From the NCBI GenBank assembly GCA_964450605.1, contig CAYVEK010000002.1, positions 87,681 through 151,680 on the forward strand: 64,000 nt of DNA, written 5' to 3'. Source of the DNA: an uncultured Candidatus Saccharibacteria bacterium. Its GTDB lineage: Bacteria; Patescibacteriota; Minisyncoccia; Phycocordibacterales; CAIZLB01. Below, one piece after another: positions 8,005-30,272 of the stretch. Positions within the stretch are counted from its first letter, which is position 1. Every line of letters starts with the position of its first letter. Made by a program: the position numbers and the translations under genes. The notes beneath the pieces were generated by a model. It saw only the letters and a list, made by a program, of their open reading frames with translations. It was not told where the DNA came from and did no database searches.

Positions 8005-8007
8005 TTT

Positions 8008-9060: not shown

Positions 9061-9084
9061 AATATGACCATTATGGCATATTCT

Positions 9085-9777: not shown

Positions 9778-9791
9778 ATATATATTGTATG

Positions 9792-10379: not shown

Positions 10380-10393
10380 ACATAATAAAGTTT

Positions 10394-10747
10394 TTAAAAA
10401 AGTCTACCACCTAAAACTGCATCTGCATTGTCTGGTTTTATAAGAATAACTTTTCCGTTCGTATCAGGGACTCCAAGTGTCAGAACCTCAGATTCAAATG
10501 GACCTATTTTTCGTGGTGGAAAATTTACAACACCTAGGACCAGACGATTTATAAGCTCTTCTTTTGTATACCGATCAACAATTTGTACAGACGATCTTTT
10601 TACACCAACATCTTTACCGAAATCTATAGTAAGTTTATATGCTGGTTTTCGAGCTTCAGGAAAGTCTTCAACCTGAATAACCTTTCCTACTCGAATATCT
10701 ATTTTTTCGAAATCATCTATAGTAGCCATATTTTGATAGTACCACAA
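10394..10747 (-). CDS. csaA: tRNA-binding protein CsaA (Trbp111 / EMAP-like OB fold)
   Basis: IDIRVGKVIQVEDFPEARKPAYKLTIDFG matches the CsaA family. Confidence 0.8.
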   Translation of the reverse strand: MWYYQNMATIDDFEKIDIRVGKVIQVEDFPEARKPAYKLTIDFGKDVGVKRSSVQIVDRYTKEELINRLVLGVVNFPPRKIGPFESEVLTLGVPDTNGKVILIKPDNADAVLGGRLF

Positions 10748-10776
10748 AAGTTAGACAGTGGTATATAATTATATTT

Positions 10777-10890
10777 ATGAAAGCACTTTTGCTACGCTTA
10801 CGACTCAAAGGCTTTAATCGCCTTGAAGCCCTTGCTGTAGGAGTTTTTATTGTGATAATTATCGCGATAATCTACGTACTACTACGATAA
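10777..10890 (+). CDS. Candidate 37-aa hydrophobic micro-protein (MKALLLRLRLKGFNRLEALAVGVFIVIIIAIIYVLLR)
   Basis: It is below the ORF-track length cutoff. TATAAT at 10764-10769 lies 8 bp upstream of the ATG, and a hairpin plus T-run terminator follows at 10888-10925. It carries a basic N-terminus and one TM helix. Confidence 0.25.
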   Translation: MKALLLRLRLKGFNRLEALAVGVFIVIIIAIIYVLLR

Positions 10891-10927
10891 CCCTTCGACC
10901 GACTCGTTCGGTTGAAGGGTTTATATT

Positions 10928-12628
10928 TTATACAGCTGTAACAGACTCTCTTTTTGCCAGACGTGCCAGATGTTTATTTCTTTCTTTATCAAATTTTTCA
11001 ACATCAAAGGCATATTCAGCTATCATGTTTGATGCATGATGTGCTCCAAGATAATGCGGCATTATCACATATGTTGCACCTGCGAGATACAATTCTTTTG
11101 CTTGATGTATATCATGAGATATAACCATGATTATTCCTTCGGGATTAAATCTTCGATAATATGTAACAAGTAATTTGTTAACCTTGTAATCCGGAATTGT
11201 TGAAACGATAATCTTTGCTTCGGGTATTCCTATCTCCTGTAAAAATTCAACATCTTCAGCGTCACCAAACCGAAATGGTATCTCAGCTTTTTGCATCTTT
11301 TTTACTGCTGTAGGATTAAAATCAACCACAACAAAAGATGAACCTAGTTTTTCTGCAACTTTTACAAAGTCATACCCAACTCTATCGTATCCAAATATAA
11401 ACATCTCAGGATGGTGGTCGTGAGCAGATGGTTCACGACGAGAGTGTCTTCTCCACTCAAACATGCGCAGTGGTTTTTTTGAGAAGTTGTATATCTCCCT
11501 TCCATACAAAGATGCATATGTTGATGTTGCAATAGTAATAACAGCAACGAGTGTTACAAGAGATGCTAGTTTTTGATCAACTTGTCCAAGTGATAGTCCA
11601 AGGGTCATAAGGATAAGTGAAAACTCGCTGATCTGAGAAATAGAAAGTCCGGCAAAAAAACCAGTTCGCGTTCGGTATCCTAGCATGTTCATAATCCACA
11701 CAACGATGGCGGGTTTTGCAAATACAACAAATATAGACAAAACTATTGCGGGCAGTATAAGCGTCGGAATATCTGTTAAAACCATCTGAGAACCAAGTAG
11801 TACAAAGAACAAAATAATGAAGAAATCTCGCAGTGGTCTCATACGAGAACCAATCTCATACGCATAACTTGATACAGAAAGAGTTACTCCAGCAATAAGC
11901 GCACCTATTTCTATAGAAAAACCGATGACATAAAAAAGTGCCGCCATACCAAGTCCCCACGCAACAGAGAACAAAAACAAAAGTTCTTGAGAACCTGCCA
12001 AAAAACCAGATAGTCTTGGTAAAATAAATTTACTAACAAGATACAAGATAAGACCTATTCCTAGACCCTTTGCACCTAACACGGTCATGGATTCAGATAA
12101 GCTGGTTGTGTTACCTGTATTTGAACCAAAAGCTGACACAAAAAGCAATATAAGCGTTGCAACAAGATCTTGCACGATCAAAAGACCTATCGTTATCTTA
12201 CTGTAGAGTTTATTTAAATTACCTTTATCGCCCAACAATTTTAAAACAATAATAGTACTGCTAAACGTTAAGGCAACTCCTCCATACATAGAGTGTACTG
12301 GATTAAAGCCTAATACATGCATAATCAAAAAACCTAAACCGAAAGTAACTGCAACCTGACAAAGTCCTATGATAAGCGAAGCTTTACCTGTCTCTTTGAT
12401 AACGGTCGGACTTAGACTTAGTCCAACAATAAACAAAAGTATAGATATACCTATCTTTGCGAACAATTCAACAAACTCTGTTGAATGCAAAGTATTTAAA
12501 ACATATGGACCTAGAATAATACCACTCAATATATATCCCGCAACCAGTGGTTGACGAAATGCGTGAGTAATGACCGCGACACATGTAGTAATAACTACTA
12601 TAAGACTAAGCTCCGTAAAAATATGCAT
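10928..12628 (-). CDS. Cation:proton antiporter (CPA2 / Kef-type) with a C-terminal RCK/TrkA-N domain
   Basis: 566 aa. About 12 TM helices followed by a Rossmann-like domain (IFGYDRVGYDFVKVAEKLG). Confidence 0.75.
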   Translation of the reverse strand: MHIFTELSLIVVITTCVAVITHAFRQPLVAGYILSGIILGPYVLNTLHSTEFVELFAKIGISILLFIVGLSLSPTVIKETGKASLIIGLCQVAVTFGLGFLIMHVLGFNPVHSMYGGVALTFSSTIIVLKLLGDKGNLNKLYSKITIGLLIVQDLVATLILLFVSAFGSNTGNTTSLSESMTVLGAKGLGIGLILYLVSKFILPRLSGFLAGSQELLFLFSVAWGLGMAALFYVIGFSIEIGALIAGVTLSVSSYAYEIGSRMRPLRDFFIILFFVLLGSQMVLTDIPTLILPAIVLSIFVVFAKPAIVVWIMNMLGYRTRTGFFAGLSISQISEFSLILMTLGLSLGQVDQKLASLVTLVAVITIATSTYASLYGREIYNFSKKPLRMFEWRRHSRREPSAHDHHPEMFIFGYDRVGYDFVKVAEKLGSSFVVVDFNPTAVKKMQKAEIPFRFGDAEDVEFLQEIGIPEAKIIVSTIPDYKVNKLLVTYYRRFNPEGIIMVISHDIHQAKELYLAGATYVIMPHYLGAHHASNMIAEYAFDVEKFDKERNKHLARLAKRESVTAV

Positions 12629-13497: not shown

Positions 13498-14269
13498 GCT
13501 CGGTAGCTATGTCTGTTTTAGGTATAATAAGTTCTTGACCAGCAGATGTTGCAACATACGGACCAAGCTCGTATGCACCATACAGTAGTCTTAATCCATC
13601 TTTTTGAAGCACAAAGTTTTCCGGAATAACTGTTTCAACTATAGAATCTATCTCACCTCCCAAAGCATCACATCTTAAACAAGTTTCGGGATGACGAATA
13701 ATCTTATCCTTGATATAAGGAGTGAGATTTTTCTCATATCCGTCTTTTAAAAAATCATTAAGTGCTAATTTTTTATTTTTTGCAACATCTATCGTATCAG
13801 AACTAAAGAAAAAAGATCCATGTGCACCGCCCATATCTGTATAATTTTCATAACCAATAGATGCTACAGTTTTTTGGTCATTTAAAAAAATAAGTTCTTT
13901 TGCAACTGTCCTATCAGCAACAAATTCTCGTCCATCAAGAGGTGCTCCACTTTTTGCATATTCAGCAAGATTTGTTTCTAGCTCTTTAACATTTTTATTA
14001 AAAAGCTCACGCGCTTCTTTTTCAAGGGTTATATTTATATTATCTAGTTTTGCAAACTGTACATACTCAACTGTGGATGAGTTTGATGACGATGCATATG
14101 TAAAACTCTTTATTTCATATGGAGCAGTAGATGTGCTAGCGATATTTTGAGCTGGCTCTACAGGAATACCTGTGTCAGTACTGTTATTTATCTTTTTAAG
14201 AAAAAATATAGCGATTCCCAATATGATAAGGGTTATAAGTATAACTATGGTTCGTTTTGTTTCTGCCAT
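13481..14269 (-). CDS. Membrane-anchored DUF3298/DUF4163-like protein (RsiV-like)
   Basis: N-terminal TM helix; the C-terminal region LRLLYGAYELGPYVATSAGQELIIP resembles DUF3298. Confidence 0.45.
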   Translation of the reverse strand: MAETKRTIVILITLIILGIAIFFLKKINNSTDTGIPVEPAQNIASTSTAPYEIKSFTYASSSNSSTVEYVQFAKLDNINITLEKEARELFNKNVKELETNLAEYAKSGAPLDGREFVADRTVAKELIFLNDQKTVASIGYENYTDMGGAHGSFFFSSDTIDVAKNKKLALNDFLKDGYEKNLTPYIKDKIIRHPETCLRCDALGGEIDSIVETVIPENFVLQKDGLRLLYGAYELGPYVATSAGQELIIPKTDIATELAREW

Positions 14270-14347
14270 ATAGACATTATATCATTTACAAATAACAAAC
14301 AAACCCTCGCTGTGGTGGTAGCGAGGGCAGGCTGTGGTTAGGGATTA

Positions 14348-14839
14348 TTAAAATTTTTTCTGAAGATCTTTCGGTAAGGTTACCGTTCTTCTTTGTTTAG
14401 CCGCTTGGGTAGCGGCGCGACCTGCTCGACTAGTGTTTGCATTGGCAGTTTTAAGTTTTTCCATATTACCTGCCAATACTTCTGCTCGAGATTGAGCATC
14501 CGGGTGTTTGATTTCGCCAGCTCCAAGTTTATGAATAGTGGCATTTATTCTCTGCATCAAGTAGTAGAGCTCTTCTTGATTGAGTTTGTGAACATCTCGA
14601 GTAATAAGGGCTTGTATACCAGGGACTTTATTTGTGACAGATCGATCACCTGCCAGTATCCATGCGAGCCTACCTTGCTCCTGTTTGCATCGAGCACGGA
14701 GCTCTTCCATGTATTGCTTCATGTTTGAACGTTTTGTTCTGCTCCGAAGGAAAAATTCTTTTCCGAACATAAAAATGAGAGCAAGAACGATAACGATAAC
14801 GATAACGATAACGACAACGGACGTGGTAAGAGTGTTCAT
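14348..14839 (-). CDS. Hypothetical single-pass membrane protein; its TM helix is encoded by a hexanucleotide tandem repeat
   Basis: The N-terminal VVVIVIVIVIVLALIF helix maps onto the (CGATAA)n repeat. Confidence 0.35.
   Translation of the reverse strand: MNTLTTSVVVIVIVIVIVLALIFMFGKEFFLRSRTKRSNMKQYMEELRARCKQEQGRLAWILAGDRSVTNKVPGIQALITRDVHKLNQEELYYLMQRINATIHKLGAGEIKHPDAQSRAEVLAGNMEKLKTANANTSRAGRAATQAAKQRRTVTLPKDLQKKF
14788..14817. repeat. Hexanucleotide tandem repeat: CGATAA x4 plus CGACAA
   Basis: Seen directly in the sequence. On the minus strand it encodes (VI)n in frame. Confidence 0.9.
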
Positions 14840-14927
14840 GTAAATGGATTGTTCGAGTTTTGTGTTTTGTACGGCACCATACCGTACATCTATATTTTAC
14901 TCCCGCACGTACAAGCAATGCAAAAAG

Positions 14928-15965
14928 TTATGCACCGCGTTTGCCCACTACCCTCTTGTGTAACCATGATCCTGGAAGCATGTGATGAAAAAACTTTGTT
15001 TTGCCATGACCGTAGAATATAAACAATAGGGCTGCTGAATATACTACAAGATCCTCAACTTCCCAAGCTCCGTATTGCATAAACATTGTCACCACAGACG
15101 CGGCAAAGAAACAGGCTATAAGAACAGTGTTTATACGCGTCAGATAACCAAGTATAAAAATAATTCCAAAAATAAGTTCAGCAAAACCAGTACTTAAAAT
15201 AAACAGCTTATTTGTAAACCATGGGAATACATCTGCCATAAAGTTCCAAGGATGAGCATTTAAAAACGCCGCACTAAGCTCTGGGGTCATGAGTTTTTCG
15301 GTGAACGCGAGCACGATAAGTGTAATACCTGTACCGAGTCGAACGAGCTCCACTGCATGCTTATCCAACTTACATGAACACCATGAATCTTTTGGAGAAT
15401 TTTTTATAAAGAAAAAAACTGCGAGTGATATGAGTAATGCATTTTCAAGAACAATAATCCATCCATGGGTAAACCCCAGCATAATGCACATTGCAAGAAG
15501 TACAACAGAAGCTAGTCGAGGTAGTATATTTAAAATAAACATAAGACCTATGACGATCTGGGTGTACTTCAGGGTTTCTGCAACTGTTCCGATAACTTTA
15601 AACTCTGGTATTAAAATGATATTCCACAAGAAACTAACAGATACCAGAAATAAACCAAGTACAACCTGTGCAGTTCGTGTTATACCCTTTTCGTGTACAT
15701 ATCCAAAAACCAAAAGCTTTCGTGGTGTTTTTATATATGAGTCCAAAACTCCAAACACAAGAACCGCTATCAGAGTTATGAATGACCAGATCAAAACCTC
15801 AGTACTTGTTATTCCGTAAAAAGGCATCACACTTCCACTTGATAAAACTTTTTCACTATCAACAAACCATTTTACATGAGCTGAGGCGACAAAAGGAATA
15901 ACACACAGTACAGTGATGAATAGTATTTTTTTAAACATGTTTTTATGATAGCACAAAGTTGACAT
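14928..15965 (-). CDS. Polytopic membrane protein (about 8 TM helices; weakly DoxX-like)
   Basis: Signal/anchor followed by multiple hydrophobic helices. No catalytic motif recognised. Confidence 0.4.
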   Translation of the reverse strand: MSTLCYHKNMFKKILFITVLCVIPFVASAHVKWFVDSEKVLSSGSVMPFYGITSTEVLIWSFITLIAVLVFGVLDSYIKTPRKLLVFGYVHEKGITRTAQVVLGLFLVSVSFLWNIILIPEFKVIGTVAETLKYTQIVIGLMFILNILPRLASVVLLAMCIMLGFTHGWIIVLENALLISLAVFFFIKNSPKDSWCSCKLDKHAVELVRLGTGITLIVLAFTEKLMTPELSAAFLNAHPWNFMADVFPWFTNKLFILSTGFAELIFGIIFILGYLTRINTVLIACFFAASVVTMFMQYGAWEVEDLVVYSAALLFIFYGHGKTKFFHHMLPGSWLHKRVVGKRGA

Positions 15966-17258: not shown

Positions 17259-20252
17259 TTATTGATTTATCAGCTTTCTGGTCTTTGGACCAAAATACCC
17301 TGAAGCAGGTTTTATGCTATGTGCTTTTTGATACTCAATCAAGGCATCTTTTGTTAGCTTTCCAAAATAATTAGTACTTTTATCTTGGCCCAATATTTTT
17401 GCTTTAGGTCCACTATTTTCCTTAATTAAAAATTGTTGAAGATCCTTAACGTCTGATCCGACAGAGCCAACCTTTAAATCTCGAACAAAAACTTTTGTAT
17501 TTATTTTTTTAAAAGGTGCACCGTTATTATTTGTTTTTTCTTCGGCAAATAATTGAGGCCATTTTTTCTTCAACTGCTCTGCTTCTGTTTTTTTGCCCAT
17601 TTTATACAGATATTCAACTTGTTGAGCTATACTACTTCCACCCGCACCAGGTCCCACCTGAGCACTCGCGCCAGCAGACAAAGTCTGACCAAAAAGAGAG
17701 AATATAGAGAAGTGTGGAGCGGTACACGTTATAGTATTTGTACTAGTATTTACAGAACAATCGTTGAGTGCTGACCATTCACCATTTGCATAGTGATACA
17801 AACGAAGAGTCGCCTCATCCAAACCTGCAATATCTGCATCTGAATATGTATACGTTATAGTAACAGGCAAAGCAAAAGAATCGAGAATAACATTTGAATT
17901 TATAATAGCCTTAACGTCAAAAACTATATCTCCAACTTTCACGGTTGTACTTGTAGGTTTACCAATAAGTCCAATAACAGGATTTCCAGGTAAAGATTGG
18001 ATCTGTATAATCACATTTGATGATGTCGAGGTGAAGTTTGCCGGAGTAGTAATCATAAACGTTGCTCCACCCTCTGTAAGTTGTGTTGTTGTTGTAGCAC
18101 TTACAGTTACATCTGTTGAAGTTGCTGATGTTTGAACAACTGATGCTTCACAACCTATTGTTTTAAATGTATCGTCAGATGACGTTGCTGTATTTGTATA
18201 CCCATCACGAGATACAATTTTATAGTAATACGTTGAGCAAGGAACTAGATTTGTTAGAGCTATAGAATGAGAAGTAACTCTGGGTGAGGTGTCTGTTTCC
18301 GCTGTACTGCTACTAAATTTAACTACTCCATAGTATACACGACTTGAAGCATTTTCATTCGTACTCCAAGTTATAGACGCTGATGTTGAGGAAGTACTTG
18401 TTGCAGAAACAGATGTTATGACAGGTGCTGTAGTGTCACCCATGGTAAAGTTCCAAGAAGTACTCGCATTTACACCTGCAAAGTACGCATGTGACCCATC
18501 TCTAAAAGCTGTACTTGGAATCATTACATAGTAGCCAACTCCTTCTTGAAAATCATTTACAGGATTAACAACTATAGTGTTTGTACCACTTCCCGTTACC
18601 GTTGAGCTTGCAACATTTATTGTCTCAAACACCGTATTGTCAGCTGTTTTGTAAATCGTAATATCACTTGTACTTGCATATACAGTCGTACTAAACAACA
18701 TCGTTAGATTTGTTGATGTTGCAACGCCGGTCGAGTTGTCTGCTGGAGTTAGAGACGAGATACTTGGTGCATTTGTTGTGCTAATTGATACATTTTTAGC
18801 TATAACAGTTGGCAAGGCTCCAAGAGCACCGTACTCAACAACATATCCAGGCAGTGTTGTTCCTGTACAAGGAAGATCGTTCCATTTTCCAGATCCACCT
18901 GATAAGAATTGACCACAATCTTCATTTGAACCCGCATCATTTGGTTCACCAGTTCCCCAGTTTGCGTAATTACCACCAAAAGTAGATCCTCCACTTGCAC
19001 CACTCCAAAACTGTGTACCTGTCTCAGGCCCTGTCGCCCACTTCCAAGCACCTTCGACAGCAGAATCAGAAGCGCCCATCCAACCGGCATTCGATAAACG
19101 AGCTGCGACGAAATCATTTTCTTGTTGTGAAGTAATGGTTGTTAGGTACCCAGTAGCACCATATTTTGTAAGTGAAGCTGCTGCGGCTTGTGCCCCTTGC
19201 CATGTAAGTGTACTTGATATGTATTCATATAGATGGCCGTTATCTGCAAAAAATACTTCACCTGAAGGTACAAGAGAAACTTCAAGAGTGTCTGACCCTG
19301 TACTTGCTCGAGTATATGTAAGTGTTGAAAGAGCGTTATTAATATCCGTAACCGTTCCGCTAAAATACAATGTTGAACCAGTTGTTCCGCCTGTAAACGT
19401 AAGACCTGTTGTATTTGACATTGCCAATGTTCCACTTGTAACTCGCAACTTCACAGGTGTTGTTGATGCTCCATTTCCGCTTATTTGTACATCAGTTATA
19501 GGCATTGCCACATTTGCAGTACCTGTGACTGTATCTGCACCTACAATAGAAAAGTTTGCAGGAGGTGTGGCAGAATATGTTTGTACTCGAGTAGAGTGTA
19601 CAAAATGAACACCACTGTTATACCACGTTGATAAACCAGAAGATCCACTTCCTTGCAAGGTTGCAGAACTATCCGTTGTATTAAAAGTACCAACAAGACT
19701 ATTGTCAGCAAGATTTCTCACAATGACAGATATAACTGTTGCATTTGTACTTGTTGCAGAAAACTCAATACTATACCCAATAGAATTGTTAAGAGAAAGT
19801 GCCGTTGTTCCAAGTGAGGTTGTAACTCCTCCAACTATTTTATATACAAATATTCCACCACTTCCGATATGTGCAAGATAATGATCATTTGTCCCTGATT
19901 GATATCGCAAAACAAGTCCTAAAAACTGACCAAAGTTTTCTCCCGCAGGAAGAGTTGCTATGATACGCTGGTCCTGTTTATTTTCTGAACTTGGTCGTAA
20001 CAAAAACTTTGTCAAATAATCTGAACTTGCATACGACGATCCTTGCAGTTGATTGTTCGATATATTCCACATACCTCCTGCCGTATCTATCCACCCATTA
20101 CCGGCGCCCGATGTTGAGCCTGGAGTAGAAGACGTTGCAGTATCTGCTCGAGTAAATGAATCATCGACAACTGGATACCATGTCGTTGCGCTAACTGATA
20201 CCGACAATAATGATACTGAAAAAATAAATAAAAATTTTGAAACTTGTTTCAT
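17259..20252 (-). CDS. Large secreted multidomain surface protein: C-type lectin-like domain, Ig-like (Big) and FN3-like domains, C-terminal peptidoglycan-binding domain
   Basis: 997 aa with a signal peptide. The lectin-like region is WQGAQAAAASL...QQENDFVA...EGAWKWATG...ANWGTGEPNDAGSNEDCGQF...GKWNDLPCT. The FN3-like region is SITWSTNENASSRVYYG...CSTYYYKIVSRDGYTN. The C-terminal PG_binding_1-like region is LKVGSVGSDVKDLQQFL...LIEYQKAH. Confidence 0.75.
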   Translation of the reverse strand: MKQVSKFLFIFSVSLLSVSVSATTWYPVVDDSFTRADTATSSTPGSTSGAGNGWIDTAGGMWNISNNQLQGSSYASSDYLTKFLLRPSSENKQDQRIIATLPAGENFGQFLGLVLRYQSGTNDHYLAHIGSGGIFVYKIVGGVTTSLGTTALSLNNSIGYSIEFSATSTNATVISVIVRNLADNSLVGTFNTTDSSATLQGSGSSGLSTWYNSGVHFVHSTRVQTYSATPPANFSIVGADTVTGTANVAMPITDVQISGNGASTTPVKLRVTSGTLAMSNTTGLTFTGGTTGSTLYFSGTVTDINNALSTLTYTRASTGSDTLEVSLVPSGEVFFADNGHLYEYISSTLTWQGAQAAAASLTKYGATGYLTTITSQQENDFVAARLSNAGWMGASDSAVEGAWKWATGPETGTQFWSGASGGSTFGGNYANWGTGEPNDAGSNEDCGQFLSGGSGKWNDLPCTGTTLPGYVVEYGALGALPTVIAKNVSISTTNAPSISSLTPADNSTGVATSTNLTMLFSTTVYASTSDITIYKTADNTVFETINVASSTVTGSGTNTIVVNPVNDFQEGVGYYVMIPSTAFRDGSHAYFAGVNASTSWNFTMGDTTAPVITSVSATSTSSTSASITWSTNENASSRVYYGVVKFSSSTAETDTSPRVTSHSIALTNLVPCSTYYYKIVSRDGYTNTATSSDDTFKTIGCEASVVQTSATSTDVTVSATTTTQLTEGGATFMITTPANFTSTSSNVIIQIQSLPGNPVIGLIGKPTSTTVKVGDIVFDVKAIINSNVILDSFALPVTITYTYSDADIAGLDEATLRLYHYANGEWSALNDCSVNTSTNTITCTAPHFSIFSLFGQTLSAGASAQVGPGAGGSSIAQQVEYLYKMGKKTEAEQLKKKWPQLFAEEKTNNNGAPFKKINTKVFVRDLKVGSVGSDVKDLQQFLIKENSGPKAKILGQDKSTNYFGKLTKDALIEYQKAHSIKPASGYFGPKTRKLINQ

Positions 20253-21797: not shown

Positions 21798-22616
21798 TTA
21801 TTTTAATTTCTTAATTGTATTATTAGACTGCAGTGATTTCATTTGAGATATTGCAATTTCATTTAATTTTAATATTCTATCAGATTGAGTCATTCCCATT
21901 TTTATAAACTCAGCATTCAATGTTTCTAGATTTGCAAGACATACAAGCTCATACACATCAGCATAATCACGCATATTTCCTTCTTTATTTTTATTCTTAC
22001 TCTTCCACTCCTGAGCAGTCATTCCGAAAAGTGCCTTATTTAAAATATCAGCCTCGTTTGCATAGATTCCTACCGCATCCTGTTTTGATAATTTATTTGG
22101 TAAAACAATATTTTCTTTAATTGAATCTGTGTGAATTTTATAATTTATTTTTGTCAAAACTCTTTTTGCATCCCATCCAATCGTTAGACGTTCGGCTTCA
22201 TCTATTTTCAACCTTTGAAACTCTTTGATCAGATACAGTTTAAACTCAGCAGAAATCCAAGTGGCAAATTCAAATGCAATGTCTTTATGGGCAAATGTAC
22301 CTCCGCCATTTCCAGACTTAGAGATAATTCCAACGGCACCTGTAGTCTCTATCCACTTCTGAGGTGATAAAGTAAAACTATTGGAACCAGCCTCTTTTTT
22401 AAAGGCGTCGAATTCGACCCCTTTGAAATTTAAATTATTAACCCTTTCCCAAACACCCAAAAACTCTATAGTAGAATAATTTCTCATCCAATTTTTAACA
22501 ACATCTTTTGGCTCATTTGGATTCTTATATCGAGCAATATCAGTAAGGGAAATATAATCATCCTGACCCTGTCTAAATGTGTATATTTGAATACCTTGAG
22601 TGTTTATCTTCTTCAT
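21798..22616 (-). CDS. KilA-N domain protein (phage-derived DNA-binding module) with an antirepressor-like C-terminal region
   Basis: N-terminal ISLTDIARYKNPNEPKDVVKNWMRNYSTIEFLGVWE fits the KilA-N pattern. Confidence 0.65.
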   Translation of the reverse strand: MKKINTQGIQIYTFRQGQDDYISLTDIARYKNPNEPKDVVKNWMRNYSTIEFLGVWERVNNLNFKGVEFDAFKKEAGSNSFTLSPQKWIETTGAVGIISKSGNGGGTFAHKDIAFEFATWISAEFKLYLIKEFQRLKIDEAERLTIGWDAKRVLTKINYKIHTDSIKENIVLPNKLSKQDAVGIYANEADILNKALFGMTAQEWKSKNKNKEGNMRDYADVYELVCLANLETLNAEFIKMGMTQSDRILKLNEIAISQMKSLQSNNTIKKLK

Positions 22617-22648
22617 ATTTGCTCAAAGTGTATCATACTAAAAATCTT

Positions 22649-23122
22649 TTATTTATGTTGTAATGTTTGAACAACAATACGATGTCTATATTTGGCATGT
22701 CTAACAGACTCATCTAAAAATCTAGTGATTCGAACATCACGATTGCCGTCAGAGATAATACGAACATCTGCCACAAAAAATTCATTATTTGCTTTAAAAA
22801 GAAATCTAAAACATGTCCACTCTTCCATGCTTAAGATATAGTCTTTCGCATTATGTATGATAAAACTTTTTATCTGCGGAGTTGTGAGAACTAAATGGTC
22901 TATGTTTTGATCAATACTTTCAAAAATATTTTTATACTCCGCATCCTCTGTTTGTTCATACACATCTACCGTAATATCAGGAGTTGGAGACTCAGGTTTA
23001 TCGCACCCCCAATTTTTAAAATCAGGACTAATATAGTTAAAAATATCTTGGGCAGAAGCGAGGATTTCTGTACCGTCAGTAGAGCCAATCGTTACAGATG
23101 TGTCTAGCTTATTACAAATCAT
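22649..23122 (-). CDS. Orphan hypothetical protein (157 aa); first of three small genes each preceded by the conserved GTTGGAC...GTTAGAAC element
   Basis: ATG lies directly adjacent to repeat copy A. No known domain. Confidence 0.3.
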   Translation of the reverse strand: MICNKLDTSVTIGSTDGTEILASAQDIFNYISPDFKNWGCDKPESPTPDITVDVYEQTEDAEYKNIFESIDQNIDHLVLTTPQIKSFIIHNAKDYILSMEEWTCFRFLFKANNEFFVADVRIISDGNRDVRITRFLDESVRHAKYRHRIVVQTLQHK

Positions 23123-23123
23123 T

Positions 23124-23150
23124 GTTGGACGGATTGATACAAGTTAGAAC
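23124..23150. repeat. att-like conserved element, copy A (GTTGGACGGATTGATACAAGTTAGAAC)
   Basis: Three copies occur at 23124, 23514 and 23901, spaced 390 and 387 bp apart. Each sits just upstream of a minus-strand small gene. Confidence 0.8.
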
Positions 23151-23154
23151 CGTT

Positions 23155-23505
23155 TTAATTAAAATACAAGAACATTCCCATCACCAAAATCAGCTGAATT
23201 CCCACAGTAAACAGTAATCTTTTAAATCCTGTAGACTGAACCAATGAAGCGTGTTGCAAAACACTCACACCGATAGGATCAATCTGGTTTCCTAAATCAG
23301 TAGGCTTTGTTGATGGATCATAAAGATATACTGCCAGCGACAATGTGTACACAAGAATTGCCTGAAGTAATCCGCTAATAATGGTTTGATTTTCCTGATA
23401 TTTGAAAAATACTGTTGATATTAGTGAAAACACTATAGCAGTAATGAATAAAATTGTGAGCGAAACTTTTTTGGATCTATAATACATACATAAATAATAC
23501 CACAA
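23155..23505 (-). CDS. Orphan small membrane protein (3-4 TM helices); annotated start is TTG, and an internal ATG at 23487 is more likely the true start
   Basis: Hydrophobic helices; no known domain. Confidence 0.3.
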   Translation of the reverse strand: MWYYLCMYYRSKKVSLTILFITAIVFSLISTVFFKYQENQTIISGLLQAILVYTLSLAVYLYDPSTKPTDLGNQIDPIGVSVLQHASLVQSTGFKRLLFTVGIQLILVMGMFLYFN

Positions 23506-23513
23506 AACCTCTC

Positions 23514-23540
23514 GTTGGACCGATTACGTGAAGTTAGAAC
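23514..23540. repeat. att-like conserved element, copy B (GTTGGACCGATTACGTGAAGTTAGAAC)
   Basis: Direct repeat of copy A/C. Confidence 0.8.
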
Positions 23541-23561
23541 TGCTTTGATAAAATCAAGCCT

Positions 23562-23861
23562 TTAATTGCCTGAAAAACAGATATACTCATGAGTATTAAT
23601 TGTTAATATAAAATCTTGTATTTGAGAAGAAACACTTGCTAATTCTTCAGAGAACTTGAACGTCTTCAACTCGGATATCAATTGAGGAACTTGTAGTGTA
23701 TTGAAAATTGTATCTCCATAAGGATCAATTCCCCAGAGAGTTTTGAAAGTTTTTTCCTGATCCCTGTCATGTATTTCAGCAAGAAGACGACCGAAATCTA
23801 GGTTTGAATCGGTTATTATTTTCCCATGTTCGTCTTGTAAGAATATTCCTATTGGTTGCAT
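23562..23861 (-). CDS. Orphan small cytosolic protein (99 aa)
   Basis: No known domain. A TGTGAT-N3-ATCACA palindrome lies between repeat C and its ATG. Confidence 0.3.
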   Translation of the reverse strand: MQPIGIFLQDEHGKIITDSNLDFGRLLAEIHDRDQEKTFKTLWGIDPYGDTIFNTLQVPQLISELKTFKFSEELASVSSQIQDFILTINTHEYICFSGN

Positions 23862-23882
23862 ATTGTGATCATATCACACAAT

Positions 23883-23927
23883 TTGTTAACAAAATCACTT
23901 GTTGGACGGATTACGTGAAGTTAGAAC
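23883..23927. repeat. att-like conserved element, copy C, fused to a 22-mer (TTGTTAACAAAATCACTTGTTG) that is identical to the sequence abutting the tRNA-Gln 3' end at 28004-28025
   Basis: Exact 22-nt identity seen in the sequence. Confidence 0.85.
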
Positions 23928-23993
23928 CTCTTTATATCATACTTTGGTGGGTAAATATGCAGTGATGAGGACATGTGAAAAAGTCTAATACCA

Positions 23994-24022
23994 TTGACAT
24001 TTGTATCTATGGATTGTATTAT
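23994..24022 (+). promoter_or_regulatory. Sigma-70-like promoter TTGACA-17-TATTAT upstream of the radical SAM gene
   Basis: Consensus hexamers with 17-bp spacing. An AT-rich promoter abuts a GC-rich ORF. Confidence 0.5.
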
Positions 24023-24058
24023 TGCAGGCAGAAACCAAACCCTCAAACTCCCGCACAA

Positions 24059-25917
24059 TGAACAAAATAATCGCTCCCCTTCTCGTCATCTGTATGATGG
24101 CCTTGAACCTCACCACCAACACATCTTGGGAGGTTAATCTCTCACCAGACTCCGTCTGCAAAATGATCTACAACCACACGGACGTAGACAAACCAATCAC
24201 CCTCAAAGCTCGTTCTGTTGAAGTCGAGATGTACGTAGAGTACGGATGGGGTTGGAGGACAGTTAACGTGCTTGGTGAACCCAAGACCGAAATATCCTTC
24301 AAACCGGGCCCTGCATACATCGTTCCGATCTGTGATATCAGAGTGCTTTCCAATAAGAAACGTCATACCGACTTCGCCTTGCGAGTCTGCGCCGTGGCCG
24401 CTCCGTACTGGATATGCAATAAGAATCCAAATCGTCGCCTCAGCCTCAACAGTCGAACGCCATTCTCGTTGCAGAACGCTCTCCGATGTGTCGCTGAAGC
24501 AGCTCAAAACGAAGAAGGTCCACTCAATGCAAATTGGACTGATCCCGAACTCGTTCACGAATCAATGATGCTCTTCGATGATTACGAAGAGAACGCTGCC
24601 AGCTTTGCAGACCGCCTCCGGCTCATTCAGCCAAACGTCCTGTACATCGGATCAATGACCCTGTCTTTCCCCGGGGCTGTCGAACTTGCCCGCACAGCAA
24701 AGCAAATGTTTGGAGACGGGATTCTCGTAGTGCTTGGCGGCCGACATGTGAACGAAACGTTTTACACGGAGGCAAATCAAATCAAGCATCACAAAGGATC
24801 ACCGCTCCTACTTATGCAGCAAGGAAAGATCGACCAGGTCTTCGACTTGGTCGTCTCAGGCGATGGAGAGCATATATCATTAAAGATCGCCGAGATTGTC
24901 CAACGCGTCGCGACGGACAATCTAATGGTGCGAAACTTTTTTGATCACTCGCTCGAACTTTCCGAGGCTCCAGGAATCTGGCAAGCCGGATGGATCACCG
25001 CTCGGAACGAGATCGAAACGGTGCGTAGTTTAAAACCGCAAGACCGCAGCAGTTTACCAATCCCGGCAGAGGTCTTTGGTATCACCTCGCGCTTCCCTAT
25101 CTTTGGCACGGATTACACCGCGCACGTCTACAGCGATTCAAGTCGAGGCTGCGTGCGAGACTGCAGCTTCTGCAGCGAACGTCGATCAGTGGCCGGAGGT
25201 ATGCAAAACCCTGCGGCCAGTGCTGATCGATTGTTTAGACAGCTTCTTACAGTTCAAGAAATCGGCAGGATCAACGAGTGCTCGGTCAGTGCCTTCGTGG
25301 AGGATTCAATTCTCCTCGCCGGCAGTCCGCAGTACTTATCACGTCTTGCCGATCTTATGGAGAAATCCAAGTTCAACATGAGGTTCGGCGGTCAGTTCAC
25401 CGTAGCTGACCTAACAAACCCCCTCGTGCAACAACAGATTCAAAGACTACAGCAATATGGGTTGTACTATATCTACACAGGTATGGAAACAATCAACCCT
25501 GAAGCTGCGGCAGCCATGAGCAAAAACCGTAAGAAGAATACCCCGTGGTTAACACAAAACACCGAGGCTATAGACTTCGTGAGCAGGATCGGGCTAAAGT
25601 TCGGAGTGTCGGTTCTCTTCGGTATCGGCGAAAGCCAACTCGAGAGACTCCTACACCTGGACACACTCGCAGAGTGGCAGAGAGAATATCAAAACCCCTG
25701 CGTAGTCAGCCTGAATTGGGCGACCGAACACCCACTACTCAACCAGTCGTCACACGACTTTGTTGAGTGGGGCACCAACAGAGACGATCCTCGTCTTAGT
25801 TTGATGCAAGAGGTGTTCGGGGAATCATCCGCAAGGTATTGTTTCCACCCCCTACCCAACACAGAAGAACTCAGTATAATCGCGGAAAAGTTCAGAAACC
25901 TCAACAACCGTACGTAA
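24059..25917 (+). CDS. B12-binding-domain radical SAM enzyme (class B-like); GC-rich gene. The ORF-track start at 24001 is a TTG inside the promoter, so the likely start is ATG 24059 (MNKIIAPLLV...)
   Basis: CxxxCxxC motif in GCVRDCSFCSE. An upstream Rossmann-like B12-binding-type segment (ILVVLGGRHV) is present. About 50% GC by eye versus roughly 36% background. The N-terminal ~150 aa are unassigned and include a hydrophobic leader. Confidence 0.65.
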
Positions 25918-25978
25918 AGTAAGCAACCCTGACTACGTACAAATCCTCGTACCGGAGCAATCTGGTGCGAGGCATTTT

Positions 25979-27043
25979 TTATAATAATTCTTTGCAGGCA
26001 ATTACCAATGTATCAATATCTTTCTTACTATTTGATATTGATAGAGATATTCTAATAAGTGGAATACCGGGTTCTACAATACTATATCCCATATTATCAG
26101 ATACACTGATTTTATATTGATCTAATAATTTTTTAACTACATCTGCAGTTAGATCTCTATCCCCTACTGACAATGTAATAATATGATTTACTTGGTGTGG
26201 CACCTCATAAATATATTTCTCTAGACCATTTAATTTAAATTGCTCTACTAGATACAATCTAAGATCATGTATATGTTTTTCAAAATCAACTTCGTTAAAT
26301 TGCTTTAACATCTCAACCGTTGAAAATAACTCCTTGGTATAACCACCGAGATCAATCTGAGGATACTCACAATCCTCAGATATATATTTATATTTAAATC
26401 CTTTTTCCAAAACACAGAGACCGAGATGTAGTTCAGCACCGATGAACTTCGATGATGTAGCAATGTATGCATCCGTATAATGCAATGGATAGATTTTTGA
26501 TCCACCAATCATCTGCGCTCCATCTGCAATACATACAGCATCTGGATATTTTTCTTTTACATGTTTAAAAATAGACTCAACTGGATATTCTTGTCCGGTT
26601 AATCTCGATACATGTGAATGAATGACAACGACAACAATTCCTTCATCTTCCAGAATCATAGGTCCCTCATCTGGATCGAATACTGTAACTGGATGTGACT
26701 GAAATGTGAATTGATGCTTTGTTGCATAGTTTGGATATGACATATCTTCCAATGACAGCTCTCCTCGTTGCAATATATCTTTAATCCAAAAAACCTCATG
26801 GGCATCTAAGAATATGGATATAGGTTTTCCGTTCTTACTCACCATATCAACAATATATGCAATATGGGTTGAAACATTCTGATCAATATAGACATGTTGG
26901 TCAACGTCAGTCCATAGAACTGACATATCCTGACGCAACCGCGAAACCAACTCACCCGAGTCTTGTTTGATCTCTGTATTAGATAGGAGTTTTGGCTTTC
27001 TACCATCACAGCTGTTCAAATAAATTATCGGCATTAGATTCAT
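25979..27043 (-). CDS. PLP-dependent aminotransferase class V-like (cysteine desulfurase / epimerase fold)
   Basis: VCIADGAQMIGGSKIY...ATSSKFIGAELHLG resembles the class V Lys region. Confidence 0.55.
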   Translation of the reverse strand: MNLMPIIYLNSCDGRKPKLLSNTEIKQDSGELVSRLRQDMSVLWTDVDQHVYIDQNVSTHIAYIVDMVSKNGKPISIFLDAHEVFWIKDILQRGELSLEDMSYPNYATKHQFTFQSHPVTVFDPDEGPMILEDEGIVVVVIHSHVSRLTGQEYPVESIFKHVKEKYPDAVCIADGAQMIGGSKIYPLHYTDAYIATSSKFIGAELHLGLCVLEKGFKYKYISEDCEYPQIDLGGYTKELFSTVEMLKQFNEVDFEKHIHDLRLYLVEQFKLNGLEKYIYEVPHQVNHIITLSVGDRDLTADVVKKLLDQYKISVSDNMGYSIVEPGIPLIRISLSISNSKKDIDTLVIACKELL

Positions 27044-27061
27044 AGTAGCATATCGATATCT

Positions 27062-27982
27062 CTATACCATATATGTCAGAGAATCCTCATAGGCAAGGTC
27101 TTCCCCTTTTAAGATCTTTTGGTATATGTCTTTCACCTTTGAAGTCAGCGGCCCTATCTTACCCTCACCTATCTTCCGCGCATCCACTTCAATAACAGGC
27201 GCTACAAAAGAAGACGTCCCGCAAGCAAAGACCTCATCTGCCACATACAATTCTGTTAAATCAATATTTCGTTCCATCACAGGAATATTCAAACTCTCCG
27301 CAATTTTAAAAATTATTTTTCTATTAATTCCCTCAAGAATATCATTAGATGAGTTTGGAGTAATCAAAGCTCTATTTCGCACAATGAAAATATTTGCCGC
27401 ACTCAACTCGCACACATGTCCGTCATTGTCTAAAAATATACAGTCATCATACCTACTGTCGAGTGCATCTTGTTTACCTAATACTGAGTTCACATACGCT
27501 CCATTAACTTTGGCTCTAGATGGTATTGAATAATCAGGAATACGTCGCCATACACTTGTTTTCAGCCGCACACCATTTTGAGGAATGATCGGATTGGCTT
27601 CATATATGAATATACTTAGCATCGTCTTAAGCCCTCTTGATCGAGTACCTGGAACCAAATCGACCACGTGTACTGTAGCTCTGACAAATGATAACGCAGT
27701 TATATTATTTGCTTTTATAACTTCTGATACAGCTTTTTCAAATCGCGCATAAGCCCACTCTGATTCAAAAGTATCAATGCCAATTATTTTTGATGAGTTG
27801 ATGAGTCGAGTGTAGTGATCTTTGAGATAGAGTGAAGCTATTCCTTTTTTAGTAGAAATAACTGGAAATACAGTGTATACACTGAGGCCATATAGTACAG
27901 CAGAACTCGCCACACTTAGATGAGCGTCTTCGATTGGGATGATTTTGTTTCCAAAATAGGCTTGAGGATGTATGTTGGACAT
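27062..27982 (-). CDS. Class IV aminotransferase (branched-chain amino acid / D-amino acid aminotransferase family)
   Basis: EVFACGTSSFVAPVIEVD and overall length fit fold type IV. Confidence 0.7.
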   Translation of the reverse strand: MSNIHPQAYFGNKIIPIEDAHLSVASSAVLYGLSVYTVFPVISTKKGIASLYLKDHYTRLINSSKIIGIDTFESEWAYARFEKAVSEVIKANNITALSFVRATVHVVDLVPGTRSRGLKTMLSIFIYEANPIIPQNGVRLKTSVWRRIPDYSIPSRAKVNGAYVNSVLGKQDALDSRYDDCIFLDNDGHVCELSAANIFIVRNRALITPNSSNDILEGINRKIIFKIAESLNIPVMERNIDLTELYVADEVFACGTSSFVAPVIEVDARKIGEGKIGPLTSKVKDIYQKILKGEDLAYEDSLTYMV

Positions 27983-28022
27983 TACGATAAATTATAAAGT
28001 TTTTTGTTAACAAAATCACTTG

Positions 28023-28094
28023 TTGCCAGACTTGGAATCGAACCAAGATTAACGGGATCAGAATCCGTTGTCCTACCTTTAGACGATCTGGCAA
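28023..28094 (-). tRNA. tRNA-Gln (anticodon CTG)
   Basis: Hand-folded cloverleaf: acceptor TGCCAGA/TCTGGCA (U1-A72); D arm GTCT-AAAGGTA-GGAC; anticodon loop TTCTGAT with one stem mismatch; T arm CTTGG-TTCGATT-CCAAG. No CCA is encoded. Confidence 0.7.
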
Positions 28095-28133: not shown

Positions 28134-28450
28134 CTCTTGACACCACAAAAAACCAGCGCTAGACTAAATTACGGCACCTTCAAAGGAATCTCTCTGATCT
28201 GTTTTCAGAAGAGCTCTTCCGGTCCTCAGGTGACCAACTTCCAACCAACCTGCCACCATCATGGCCCAACAAAAACCCAAACCACCTCGTCACGTATCTC
28301 ACCAGACCAGAAAAGGAGGGTCCTCCCCCCATTCAGGTCAAGCTCTCGCTGTCATCTGGGAAGGCCGAAAGCCTCCCAAGAAGCGGCACTGAGATCGTTA
28401 TCAACCCAAAACCCCGCCTCGGCATTACGCCGGGCGGGGTCCATTTTTTT
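28134..28450 (+). ncRNA. Candidate structured noncoding RNA or degraded GC-rich insert: TTGACA-17-TAGACT promoter, about 280 nt of ~55-60% GC sequence, then a strong intrinsic terminator (28411-28450)
   Basis: The only ORF (28137..28490) translates to a low-complexity peptide and reads through the terminator. An 11-bp GC-rich hairpin plus T7 closes the element. RNA family not identified. Confidence 0.25.
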
Positions 28451-29783: not shown

Positions 29784-29811
29784 TTGACAATGGGCTCAAA
29801 TATGGTATAAT
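29784..29811 (+). promoter_or_regulatory. Sigma-70-like promoter TTGACA-16-TATAAT, followed by a 5'UTR hairpin (atcgtgg-aaaagta-ccacgat, 29826-29846)
   Basis: Consensus hexamers; perfect 7-bp hairpin. Confidence 0.5.
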
Positions 29812-29880
29812 ATATACATCCTGACAAATCGTGGAAAAGTACCACGATCCAGGCTCAACCAAAACTCCAGCACACGAACC

Positions 29881-30189
29881 ATGAAACTTGTTAAAATTCT
29901 CTTCGCCGTCCTGACCGCCGCCACCTTCAGCTCCTGCACCATCGAGGTGCAGAGCCGGGGAGGTTACAGCGGTGGCGGACCCGTGGTCCGCCCGCTGACC
30001 GGAAACCCCTACACCTATCAAGGCGGAGGGTACTACGGCCGGCCGGCCCCGACGGTCCGGCCCCAGACCCCCTACCGGCCCAATGGCCGGGCCTATCCGG
30101 AGGAAACCTCCGGATTTGTAGGGGTCCCGTGGACCCAGGCAGAAAAGAACGAAATGAGGTTCTCGACCTCAAAATGGGGTGGGTTGTAA
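29881..30189 (+). CDS. Small GC-rich (~65%) Gly/Pro/Tyr-rich putative lipoprotein
   Basis: Signal peptide with ...TFSSC lipobox-like site. A compound hairpin terminator lies at 30214-30258. Composition is strikingly different from its neighbours. Confidence 0.4.
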   Translation: MKLVKILFAVLTAATFSSCTIEVQSRGGYSGGGPVVRPLTGNPYTYQGGGYYGRPAPTVRPQTPYRPNGRAYPEETSGFVGVPWTQAEKNEMRFSTSKWGGL

Positions 30190-30272
30190 AACCCTGCCCC
30201 CCTATCTGCCAAAACCCCCGGACCACACTCACACTGTGGCACCCGGGGGTCTTTTTTTATATACACCAAAAC

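Follow-up and report, generated by a model that had tools for sequence, protein, structure and literature searches.

The closest described relatives of the protein analyzed here are captured by TIGR04434 (rSAM_Pput_1520, "B12-binding domain/radical SAM domain-containing protein"), which is a model of hypothetical-equivalog type with no function assigned to it. Literature searches yielded no biochemical data for any member of this radical SAM (rSAM) family, and nothing relevant on TIGR04434/Pput_1520, on PF03483/COG3382 in combination with radical SAM, on B12-binding rSAM proteins with aminotransferases in Patescibacteria, or on codon usage in the Candidate Phyla Radiation. The best structural match is AprD4 (PDB 6fd2), the radical SAM 1,2-diol dehydratase of apramycin biosynthesis, which is not known to bind cobalamin and acts with a partner reductase, AprD3; the next best matches are B12 methylases.

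Organization of the locus

The rSAM gene is located on the plus strand of the window (the whole 64-kb stretch of DNA that was analyzed), where it appears to form a self-contained transcription unit, with a consensus promoter, a C/A-rich leader lacking a Shine-Dalgarno (SD) sequence, a 619-aa open reading frame and an intrinsic terminator:

23994-24022, plus strand: AT-rich sigma-70-type promoter, TTGACA-17-TATTAT (best site in a promoter scan)
24030-24057, plus strand: C/A-rich 5' leader, no SD, start of the GC-rich tract (read from the sequence)
24058-25917, plus strand: rSAM gene, 619-aa Rossmann and radical SAM enzyme, TIGR04434-like, monocistronic, 50.8% GC
25945-25981, plus strand: intrinsic terminator (hairpin 25945-25972), 12-bp stem with 7 G-C pairs, followed by a T-run

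The two promoter hexamers, TTGACA (23994-23999) and TATTAT (24017-24022), are separated by a 17-nt spacer and match 11 of the 12 consensus positions. The same element is present 5' of the rSAM orthologs in L047 (the closest sibling), L002, L005, L006 and L044, and the last four of these also share comparable "cagaaacc.caaaccc" leaders and a hairpin at the equivalent place, distinct from that of the window but conserved. SD sequences are nearly absent from genes across the window. The terminator is common to the rSAM gene and the end of the convergent gene for a pyridoxal phosphate (PLP) enzyme, and the GC-rich tract stops there.

Windowed GC analysis bore out the earlier claim of a GC-rich gene embedded in AT-rich DNA: the GC content of the rSAM coding sequence is 50.8%, compared to 37.8% in the rest of the window (z = 6.1), and its GC3 is 0.58, against an average of 0.29 for the window genes, with C-ending codons being favored. 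The bins spanning 24001-26000 are at 0.50 GC and all other 1-kb bins at 0.30-0.46, and other 1860-bp stretches of the window reach at most 0.448 (mean 0.378, sd 0.021). The rise, previously noticed close downstream of the promoter, indeed lies just 3' of the -10 hexamer (end at 24022); past the hairpin, GC content steps down again.

Several other readings of the locus were rejected. An overlapping or antisense gene as the source of the high GC was discarded because every alternative frame contains at least 15 stops in all 8 orthologs examined, the only deviation being a mild but consistent depletion of stops in frame +3. A structured RNA or riboswitch was discarded given that an Rfam scan of the window detected four tRNAs only, with no cobalamin riboswitch, and nothing convincing in another GC-rich unit at 28.1-28.45 kb. 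An anti-phage defense system was set aside as well, with no matches to PADLOC defense models among six locus proteins.

Domain architecture of the radical SAM protein

The AF2 model of the 619-aa protein (pLDDT 93.2) suggests a four-part architecture, in which a hydrophobic helix, a beta-sandwich and a Rossmann-type (B12-binding-like) domain would precede a radical SAM barrel holding a single [4Fe-4S] cluster:

24061-24105, plus strand: N-terminal hydrophobic helix, residues 2-16, signal-anchor-like (AF2 model)
24109-24300, plus strand: small beta-sandwich domain, residues 18-81 (AF2 strands, pLDDT ~90)
24379-25047, plus strand: residues ~108-330, B12-binding-like domain of Rossmann type; its GGxHxxET and SGDGE motifs are invariant
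25150-25173, plus strand: CxxxCxxC [4Fe-4S]/SAM motif, C365/C369/C372 (sequence and homolog alignment)

The radical SAM core recognized in the first-pass annotation is confirmed by the Radical_SAM profile (PF04055, 39.8 bits against a gathering threshold of 29.5), by the presence of a partial TIM-barrel fold, and by the C365-x3-C369-x2-C372 motif, which is invariant across 99 homologs and comprises the only invariant cysteines of the family. The preceding B12-binding-type segment is seen as a Rossmann domain in the predicted fold, but the Pfam B12-binding profile (PF02310) does not recognize it, with a score of 16.5 bits against the cutoff of 32.1. The unusual N-terminus with its leader also holds up: the first ~107 residues match no Pfam family and open with the hydrophobic helix, which is conserved solely within the Patescibacteria subclade. 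The beta-sandwich is followed by a low-confidence linker up to residue ~107. When 1.84 billion proteins were searched exhaustively for the beta-sandwich domain, only P0002 and a repeat protein, P0145, came up.

The conserved PLP enzyme and the adjacent aminotransferase

Two genes converge on the rSAM gene:

25979-27043, minus strand: PLP gene, 354-aa class-V-fold PLP enzyme, 34% GC, GC3 0.26 (PF00266, 42.4 bits)
27062-27982, minus strand: BCAT, class IV branched-chain aminotransferase (PF01063, 138.6 bits; NF005146, 246.6 bits, cutoff 279)

Both had been described as aminotransferase genes of native composition lying directly downstream of the rSAM gene. Their composition is native and they are adjacent, but both are encoded on the minus strand, convergently with the rSAM gene, and are not operonic downstream genes. 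The PF00266 match to the PLP protein (cutoff 21.5 bits) covers residues 138-203 only. Within this region, K199 (nt 26447-26449) aligns with the PLP lysine of 3zrp. Across the family, D174, Q177 and R331 are invariant, and H144, S198 and K199 nearly so, whereas the Cys loop of NifS/SufS is deleted in 17 of the 17 members and present in a NifS-like control from L049. It is a small family, represented by 14 clusters in a set of 5.8 billion proteins.

The rSAM gene has the PLP gene as its neighbor in 13 distinct loci, and the two are fused in three ~990-aa proteins, with the rSAM portion at the N-terminus and the PLP domain at the C-terminus. This conservation supports a functional tie between the rSAM enzyme and its class-V-like neighbor, in agreement with the link drawn originally. 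All-against-all clustering of the neighborhood ORFs revealed no third conserved partner. BCAT, which shares the strand of the PLP gene and starts 18 nt upstream of it, is a lineage-specific neighbor outside the conserved module: the window and L047 are the only places where it adjoins the pair, with other genes flanking the pair elsewhere, so the suggested three-gene pathway is not supported.

Judging from fold and gene context, the rSAM enzyme might generate a 5'-deoxyadenosyl radical from SAM and thereby modify a small substrate that bears an amine or a carboxylate. Its reaction could be a putative cobalamin-mediated C-methylation or an AprD4-like, B12-independent radical rearrangement or dehydration. 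The rSAM enzyme would work together with the convergently encoded PLP enzyme, and BCAT would be merely local. Because the PLP site is complete but the desulfurase cysteine is lost, the most likely role of the PLP enzyme is transamination, or some other processing, of the substrate or product.

Base composition across orthologs

At the DNA level, we compared eight rSAM orthologs and three members of a second, Gcw_chp-like family. In all 8 rSAM orthologs, GC content is ~0.5 and GC3 is 0.48-0.58, although the host genomes range from ~38 to 52% GC, with core GC3 from ~0.29 in the window to ~0.6 in L044, where core genes are at 52-55% GC. In contrast, GC3 of the PLP gene is 0.26-0.38 in every ortholog measured. 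The protein identities of the rSAM and PLP enzymes co-vary (r = 0.96 over 15 pairs). The closest rSAM relatives (55-91% identity) all come from sibling-type genomes (Patescibacteria/Saccharibacteria-type) and carry the same N-terminal extension, whereas homologs from other phyla show 37-44% identity and host-like GC; a metagenome scan for further close orthologs recovered distant ones only.

At four-fold sites, the identity between the window gene and its more distant orthologs is 0.32-0.41, close to the 0.27-0.29 expected at saturation. Polarized synonymous changes in the rSAM gene (GC-to-AT vs AT-to-GC) number 35 vs 38, 53 vs 44 and 41 vs 41, and on the window and L047 branches, 34 vs 27, where decay towards the host composition predicts ~3.4:1; parsimony polarization with diverged outgroups is noisy and pulls such counts towards 1:1. 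The implied equilibrium GC3 is 0.45-0.61 for the rSAM gene and 0.32-0.39 for the PLP gene. Given that the changes in the two directions are balanced, the rSAM composition appears to be at equilibrium.

The rSAM gene is not the only one of this kind. The Gcw_chp-like gene (45470-46237), from a family unrelated to rSAM, is GC-rich too. Its counterpart in L048 has a GC3 of 0.76, against 0.27-0.42 for the neighboring genes, and the one in L049 has a GC3 of 0.61, against mostly 0.21-0.28 around it. Furthermore, at the site of a GC-rich lipoprotein gene in the window, L047 carries a non-homologous but also GC-rich lipoprotein gene. A general rule equating GC-richness with the secretome was rejected because two signal-peptide proteins of the window (997 and 416 aa) are encoded by AT-rich genes and two GC-rich ORFs lack a signal peptide.

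A direct repeat at a tRNA gene

A perfect direct repeat flanks the rSAM, PLP and BCAT genes:

23882-23904, plus strand: left copy of the 23-nt repeat, TTTGTTAACAAAATCACTTGTTG (0.01 chance matches expected)
28003-28025, plus strand: right copy of the same 23-nt repeat, abutting the tRNA 3' end

The tRNA is tRNA-Gln(CTG), at 28022-28093 on the minus strand. Thus, the locus shows flanking direct repeats with one copy at a tRNA 3' end, as in a tRNA-associated island. The other hallmarks of such islands, an integrase or recombinase (Pfam search of seven genes) and a sibling whose site is empty (L047), were not found: in L047, the right copy is present with one mismatch and the left copy is absent, but the same three genes are in place. 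Alternatively, the repeat could correspond to a common promoter or operator.

Origin of the GC-rich composition

Taken together, the best explanation, to which we give a slightly better than even chance, is that the GC content of the rSAM gene is a long-maintained, gene-specific property of an enzyme that acts with the PLP partner, and not a sign of recent import. Under this scenario, the gene would be held at GC ~0.5 and GC3 ~0.55, with C-ending codons, across the clade regardless of host GC, while the co-inherited neighboring PLP gene would stay AT-rich. The pair resides in a plastic, recombining region by tRNA-Gln and moves among relatives, but this movement does not account for the composition. 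A gene-specific force would set it, with biased gene conversion and selection acting on the transcript or its codons as candidates. Translational selection of the ordinary kind, driven by high expression, appears unlikely because the ribosomal-protein genes of sibling genomes (L002, L048) are neither GC3-rich nor C3-rich.

The first-pass annotation suggested a small acquired three-gene pathway, which we read as a recent horizontal acquisition from a distant GC-rich donor with the composition not yet ameliorated, and itself named best homologs in sibling genomes of the same composition as an observation that would refute its view. That is precisely what we find. Such an acquisition would fit the sharp 13-point GC step and the direct repeat by tRNA-Gln that brackets the three genes, but appears highly improbable in view of the native composition of both aminotransferase genes, the sibling-type origin and shared N-terminal extension of all relatives with 55-91% identity, and the host-like GC of the homologs from other phyla. 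Moreover, synonymous sites are saturated between orthologs, but GC3 has stayed the same and substitutions run evenly in both directions, with no decay. Pfam scans of seven genes, the three inside the repeats and the four to their left (21798-23861), detect no integrase domain. A different kind of import, in which a promoter-to-terminator rSAM unit is swapped by homologous recombination among Patescibacteria, some with ~52% GC (L044), and the AT-rich window copy was recently drawn from such GC-richer relatives, is the leading, if unlikely, competitor. Among L002, L005 and L043, the synonymous divergence (d4) of the rSAM gene is 0.46-0.66, 2-3 times lower than the 1.17-1.41 of the adjacent PLP gene, with DnaX and Dus saturated in the same genome pairs; simple weak GC selection does not produce such low values, which hint at extra recombination or cassette replacement. 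The conserved promoter and terminator could serve as homology arms, the 23-nt repeat lies at a tRNA gene, and, in L044, the rSAM gene looks native. The window/L047 alignment is a mosaic in which the block of KilA-N, rSAM, PLP and BCAT genes is less diverged than the FtsEX and RF genes. However, rSAM codon usage matches that of the L044 core poorly (r = 0.38; for threonine, the rSAM gene favors ACC and L044 favors ACT) and that of GC-rich genes from AT-rich genomes better (r = 0.60-0.71), and because of this mismatch we rejected import from L044-like relatives as the main explanation, retaining it only as a rival. Nor does it square with the congruence of the rSAM and PLP-gene distances, the equal synonymous identity of the two genes between the window and L047 (0.81 vs 0.81) with no net GC-to-AT decay, or the parallel behavior of the second gene family, and it leaves the AT-rich PLP gene of the GC-rich host L044 unexplained.

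The low synonymous divergence of the rSAM gene relative to its neighbor and the mosaic divergence just described would also be compatible with GC-biased gene conversion, whereby the rSAM cassette, in common with further accessory or surface genes, recombines unusually frequently in these populations and has its GC3 lifted by biased repair, without selection on the transcript. In line with this, fast-evolving, surface-type proteins are the products of other GC-rich units, among them the lipoprotein swapped for a non-homolog in L047. Nevertheless, we regard this mechanism as quite unlikely. The tract runs from the transcription start to the terminator, the PLP, BCAT and KilA-N genes are AT-rich despite belonging to the same low-divergence block, and it is C-ending codons in particular that are favored. 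In addition, to our knowledge, the reported effects of biased gene conversion in bacteria are far smaller than +0.3 GC3, which we count against it.

Returning to a long-maintained gene-specific composition, we tentatively consider, as a possibility with the odds against it, that AT-rich Patescibacteria possess a class of monocistronic "GC-island genes", the rSAM gene being one, with a gene-specific set-point imposed by selection on the transcript (mRNA stability or decoding). These genes may share a consensus -35/-10 promoter, an SD-less C/A-rich leader, C-ending codons and a strong terminator, and the set-point may be decoupled from the genomic mutational bias and inherited past synonymous saturation. 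Given the predicted signal-anchor, the Ig-like domain and the secreted products of several island genes, the rSAM enzyme could possibly act at or beyond the membrane; if true, such a location would have no known precedent among radical SAM enzymes.

Compositional outliers are customarily taken as evidence of recent horizontal transfer. Because adjacent, co-diverging genes hold GC3 of ~0.55 and ~0.30 across hosts with 38-52% GC, composition-based transfer calls would be wrong for this lineage, a methodological warning backed by the persistent GC-richness of the second gene family. More generally, ultra-small bacteria appear to be subject to some force that shapes base composition at the level of single genes. 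The compact two-protein module of radical SAM and PLP enzymes, sometimes fused, is widespread in Patescibacteria and tractable for biochemistry.

Comparison with known systems

The rSAM protein is a Patescibacteria-type variant of the uncharacterized TIGR04434-like family. Residues 108-601 align to positions 1-496 of the 515 in the TIGR04434 model (E = 1e-119) and the invariant motifs are shared, but the score of 400.5 bits falls below the cutoff of 550, which makes the protein a member of a related subfamily and not an equivalog. For comparison, L020 passes with 612 bits, whereas L017 from Pseudomonas typographi falls short with 422 bits. The ~107-aa extension with the helix and beta-sandwich is missing in the Pseudomonas, Agrobacterium, Marivirga and myxobacterial members, and, in place of the PLP partner, a B3/4-domain protein and a class I methyltransferase are encoded next to 10-11 other members.

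AprD4, although the best structural match, is only 13% identical to the window protein, and its context differs: no AprD3-like reductase or aminoglycoside pathway is conserved nearby, and the PLP enzyme is the sole conserved neighbor. Identity to the class B (cobalamin-dependent) rSAM enzymes TsrM, CysS, MgmA, TokK and OxsB is 10-14%. The predicted N-terminal domain resembles their Rossmann-type cobalamin-binding fold, although the PF02310 score is below threshold (16.5 vs 32.1 bits). Unlike the methylthiotransferases RimO and MiaB, the window protein lacks a second [4Fe-4S] cluster held by three cysteines of the N-terminal domain.

The PLP partner differs from the desulfurases SufS and NifS in the deletion of the loop with the catalytic persulfide Cys. 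Otherwise, it is a fold-type I protein, with TM of 0.61-0.70 to AGXT, SufS and ALAS, and keeps the His, Asp-x-x-Gln, Ser-Lys and C-terminal Arg of the class V enzymes (AGXT, SufS, NifS).

Base composition of the radical SAM locus

The radical SAM gene (rSAM gene) stands out from the AT-rich window, with 0.508 GC and 0.58 GC at third codon positions (GC3) in its CDS, compared with 0.377 GC for the rest of the window and a mean GC3 of 0.29 across the window genes. Both 1-kb bins spanning 24001-26000 are at 0.50 GC and all other bins at 0.30-0.46; the highest value for any other 1860-bp stretch is 0.448 (z = 6.1 for the rSAM CDS). The first-pass annotation had noted this contrast and its onset close behind an AT-rich promoter, and both observations are confirmed: the step starts directly 3' of the -10 hexamer (last base 24022) and ends past a terminator with a 12-bp stem. 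The promoter was also called correctly, matching 11 of the 12 consensus positions as the best site in the region.

Features of the rSAM locus and the further GC-rich units
23994-24022, +: promoter, TTGACA (23994-23999), 17 nt, TATTAT (24017-24022)
24058-25917, +: rSAM gene, 619 aa
25945-25972: terminator
25979-27043, -: class-V-fold PLP enzyme gene (PLP gene)
27062-27982, -: class IV aminotransferase gene (BCAT)
28137-28450, +: GC-rich unit, possible 43-aa peptide or ncRNA
29784-30258, +: GC-rich unit, lipoprotein-like ORF, 102 aa
45326-46305, +: GC-rich unit, Gcw_chp-like ORF, 255 aa
~49640-50118, +: GC-rich unit, 133-aa protein

The window contains four further GC-rich units (0.50-0.63 GC), each with a promoter-like element, of the TTGACA/TTGACT type in at least three, and all four with a C/A-rich leader and a GC-rich terminator. 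Together with the rSAM gene, all five lie on the minority (plus) strand. Essentially no window gene has a Shine-Dalgarno sequence and, in many, TATAAT is located 5-10 nt ahead of the ATG, a spacing which suggests that the mRNAs are leaderless or have very short leaders.

Persistent GC-richness like that of the rSAM gene is seen in the Gcw_chp-like family across three Patescibacteria genomes. The GC3 of these genes is 0.64 in the window (45470-46237; neighbours across the three genomes, about 0.26-0.36), 0.76 in contig L048 (8001-8765; neighbours, 0.27-0.42) and 0.61 in contig L049 (8001-8753; neighbours, mostly 0.21-0.28), and the proteins are just 38-58% identical. A hairpin, CATTGCATGATT...AATCATGCAATG, is present in the 5' leader, at 45379-45422 in the window and about 75-30 nt upstream of 8001 in L048, with conserved arms; it might be a regulatory RNA element, and had no match in Rfam. 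Two further GC-rich genes of the same sort were found in locus L005, where 19089-20066 encodes a GC-rich 325-aa secreted protein with a PEP-CTERM-like tail (VPEPG, a hydrophobic stretch and RRK), unexpected in a Patescibacteria-type genome. In L047, the closest sibling of the window, a non-homologous GC-rich lipoprotein gene occupies the site of the lipoprotein-like unit.

Evidence for a stable composition rather than recent transfer

The GC-rich gene had been suggested to be acquired, but the evidence speaks against a recent transfer: all eight orthologues with DNA are GC-rich, substitutions are balanced, and the gene diverged together with the PLP gene. In these eight (window, L047, L002, L005, L006, L033, L043 and L046), rSAM GC3 is 0.48-0.58, and that of the adjacent PLP gene is 0.26-0.38 in every orthologue measured; host genes are at 0.29 on average in the window, about 0.33-0.37 in L005 and about 0.40 in L002. 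In the GC-rich host L044, core genes (DnaX, Dus, enolase, iPGM) have GC3 of 0.54-0.63, and the PLP gene rather than the rSAM gene is the compositional outlier. Compared with the more distant orthologues, the window gene is near saturation at four-fold sites (identity 0.32-0.41; saturation expectation 0.27-0.29), and the pairwise identities of the rSAM and PLP proteins co-vary (r = 0.96, 15 pairs). In the rSAM gene, the polarised counts of synonymous GC-to-AT vs AT-to-GC changes are 35/38, 53/44 and 41/41; the equilibrium GC3 that they imply, 0.45-0.61, coincides with the observed value, and that of the PLP gene is 0.32-0.39. On the window and L047 branches, there are 34 GC-to-AT and 27 AT-to-GC changes, whereas decay to host composition predicts about 3.4:1, a comparison weakened by polarisation noise. 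More distant homologues have host-like GC3 (L008, L009, L016 and most other phyla); the shift is restricted to this clade.

The locus itself shows signs of lateral movement. The three genes (rSAM, PLP and BCAT) lie between the two copies (23882-23904 and 28003-28025) of a perfect 23-nt direct repeat, the right one abutting a tRNA-Gln. When the window is compared with L047, the KilA-N gene, rSAM gene, PLP gene and BCAT have synonymous identities of 0.73-0.81 and FtsX, FtsE and RF only 0.51-0.56, so the first four, as a block, were shared more recently than the backbone. In the L002/L005/L043 comparisons, four-fold-site synonymous divergence is 0.46-0.66 for the rSAM gene vs 1.17-1.41 for the PLP gene, compatible with additional exchange of the rSAM cassette. 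However, the AT-rich genes in the shared block stayed AT-rich; rSAM codon usage fails to match that of the L044 core genes (r = 0.38) but does match that of other GC-rich genes of AT-rich genomes (r = 0.60-0.71); a scan of seven genes around the locus detected no integrase domain; and the left repeat copy is absent in L047. These points count against import as the origin of the GC-richness. The result of interest is a base composition that is stable and specific to the gene, yet looks like the product of horizontal transfer.

The region at 20.8-32.8 kb is a plasticity zone, with mosaic divergence from L047; the genes lying between FtsX and BCAT, and those between the rSAM and KilA-N genes, are not the same in the two genomes. 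Three copies of a 45-nt repeat (23112-23156, 23502-23546 and 23889-23933; 64-87% identical, ~390 nt apart), each preceding a short ORF of unknown function on the minus strand (157, 116 and 99 aa), are laid out like a cassette array adjoining the rSAM locus, and the third copy also precedes the L047 rSAM gene. In L043/L044 1-13058, from a host of ~52% GC, the rSAM-PLP pair borders a mostly AT-rich type I restriction-modification/T5orf172 island.

Several other causes of GC-richness were set aside, namely, an overlapping ORF, a simple secretome rule and ordinary high-expression codon bias, the latter because ribosomal-protein genes are not GC3-rich. Frame +3 stop codons are depleted in the CDS of all eight orthologues relative to synonymous-codon shuffles (e.g., 19 observed, 30.7 ± 3.9 expected), which looks like a codon-context effect rather than an overlapping gene.

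The radical SAM protein

The predicted radical SAM core was borne out, with 39.8 bits against the Radical_SAM profile (threshold 29.5) and the motif C365-x3-C369-x2-C372. Because the only invariant cysteines are the three of the SAM cluster, the enzyme has no auxiliary cluster. Residues 108-601 align to NCBIfam TIGR04434 ('B12-binding domain/radical SAM domain-containing protein', function unknown) with 400.5 bits, below the cutoff of 550. An AlphaFold model built with 99 homologues (pLDDT 93.2) has the following layout:

Residues 2-16: helix
Residues 18-81: beta-sandwich, followed by a poorly defined linker
C-terminal to the linker: Rossmann domain, then rSAM barrel

The B12-binding-type Rossmann segment proposed earlier thus holds as to fold, but the Pfam B12-binding match is sub-threshold (16.5 bits; 32.1 required). 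The odd, unmatched N-terminus with its leader was a sound observation: the ~107 residues are confined to a Patescibacteria subclade and missing in the Pseudomonas, Agrobacterium, Marivirga and myxobacterial members, and an exhaustive search of 1.84 billion representatives retrieved just one clade member and an Ig-repeat protein of weak similarity. The enzyme represents a new lineage-specific variant of a known, uncharacterised radical SAM family. We found no paper on this family or its partner genes.

Gene context and the PLP partner

For ten or 11 other family members, the genes that follow instead encode a B3/4-domain protein and a class I methyltransferase, a context that suggests an amino-acid-like or aminoacyl-type substrate. 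In L020, a Saccharibacteria MAG (8007-11419 and 13718-15176), this version of the system is GC-rich as a block (0.51-0.54 vs 0.36 background), made up of the rSAM gene, the B3/4-domain gene, a 142-aa ORF and a methyltransferase-family gene whose L020 copy has no Pfam match; close by, an amino-acid-kinase/PUA gene is likewise GC-rich. In locus L050, a PduO-type cob(I)alamin adenosyltransferase domain (PF01923; 1-428) lies 6.5 kb from a fused rSAM-PLP gene, so this genome at least handles corrinoids.

In the window, the two aminotransferases do adjoin the rSAM gene, but both are on the minus strand, converging on it. Of the proposed three-gene pathway, the rSAM/PLP pair stands: a PLP gene of this kind comes next after the rSAM gene at 13 separate loci. 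The two converge in the window, L047, L002, L005, L043, L046, L033, the P0002 contig, L008, L009, L016 and L035, and run in the same direction in L010. BCAT adjoins the pair only in the window and L047, so the conserved unit consists of two genes, not three; genes outside the pair vary, and clustering of neighbourhood ORFs yielded no third conserved gene. Three proteins (~990 aa each) are rSAM-PLP fusions with the rSAM part N-terminal. From this arrangement, the class-V-fold PLP enzyme is predicted to be the working partner of the rSAM enzyme. It retains H144, D174, Q177, S198, K199 and R331, and its model fits AGXT, SufS and ALAS to a similar degree, but it differs from NifS/SufS in lacking their Cys loop.
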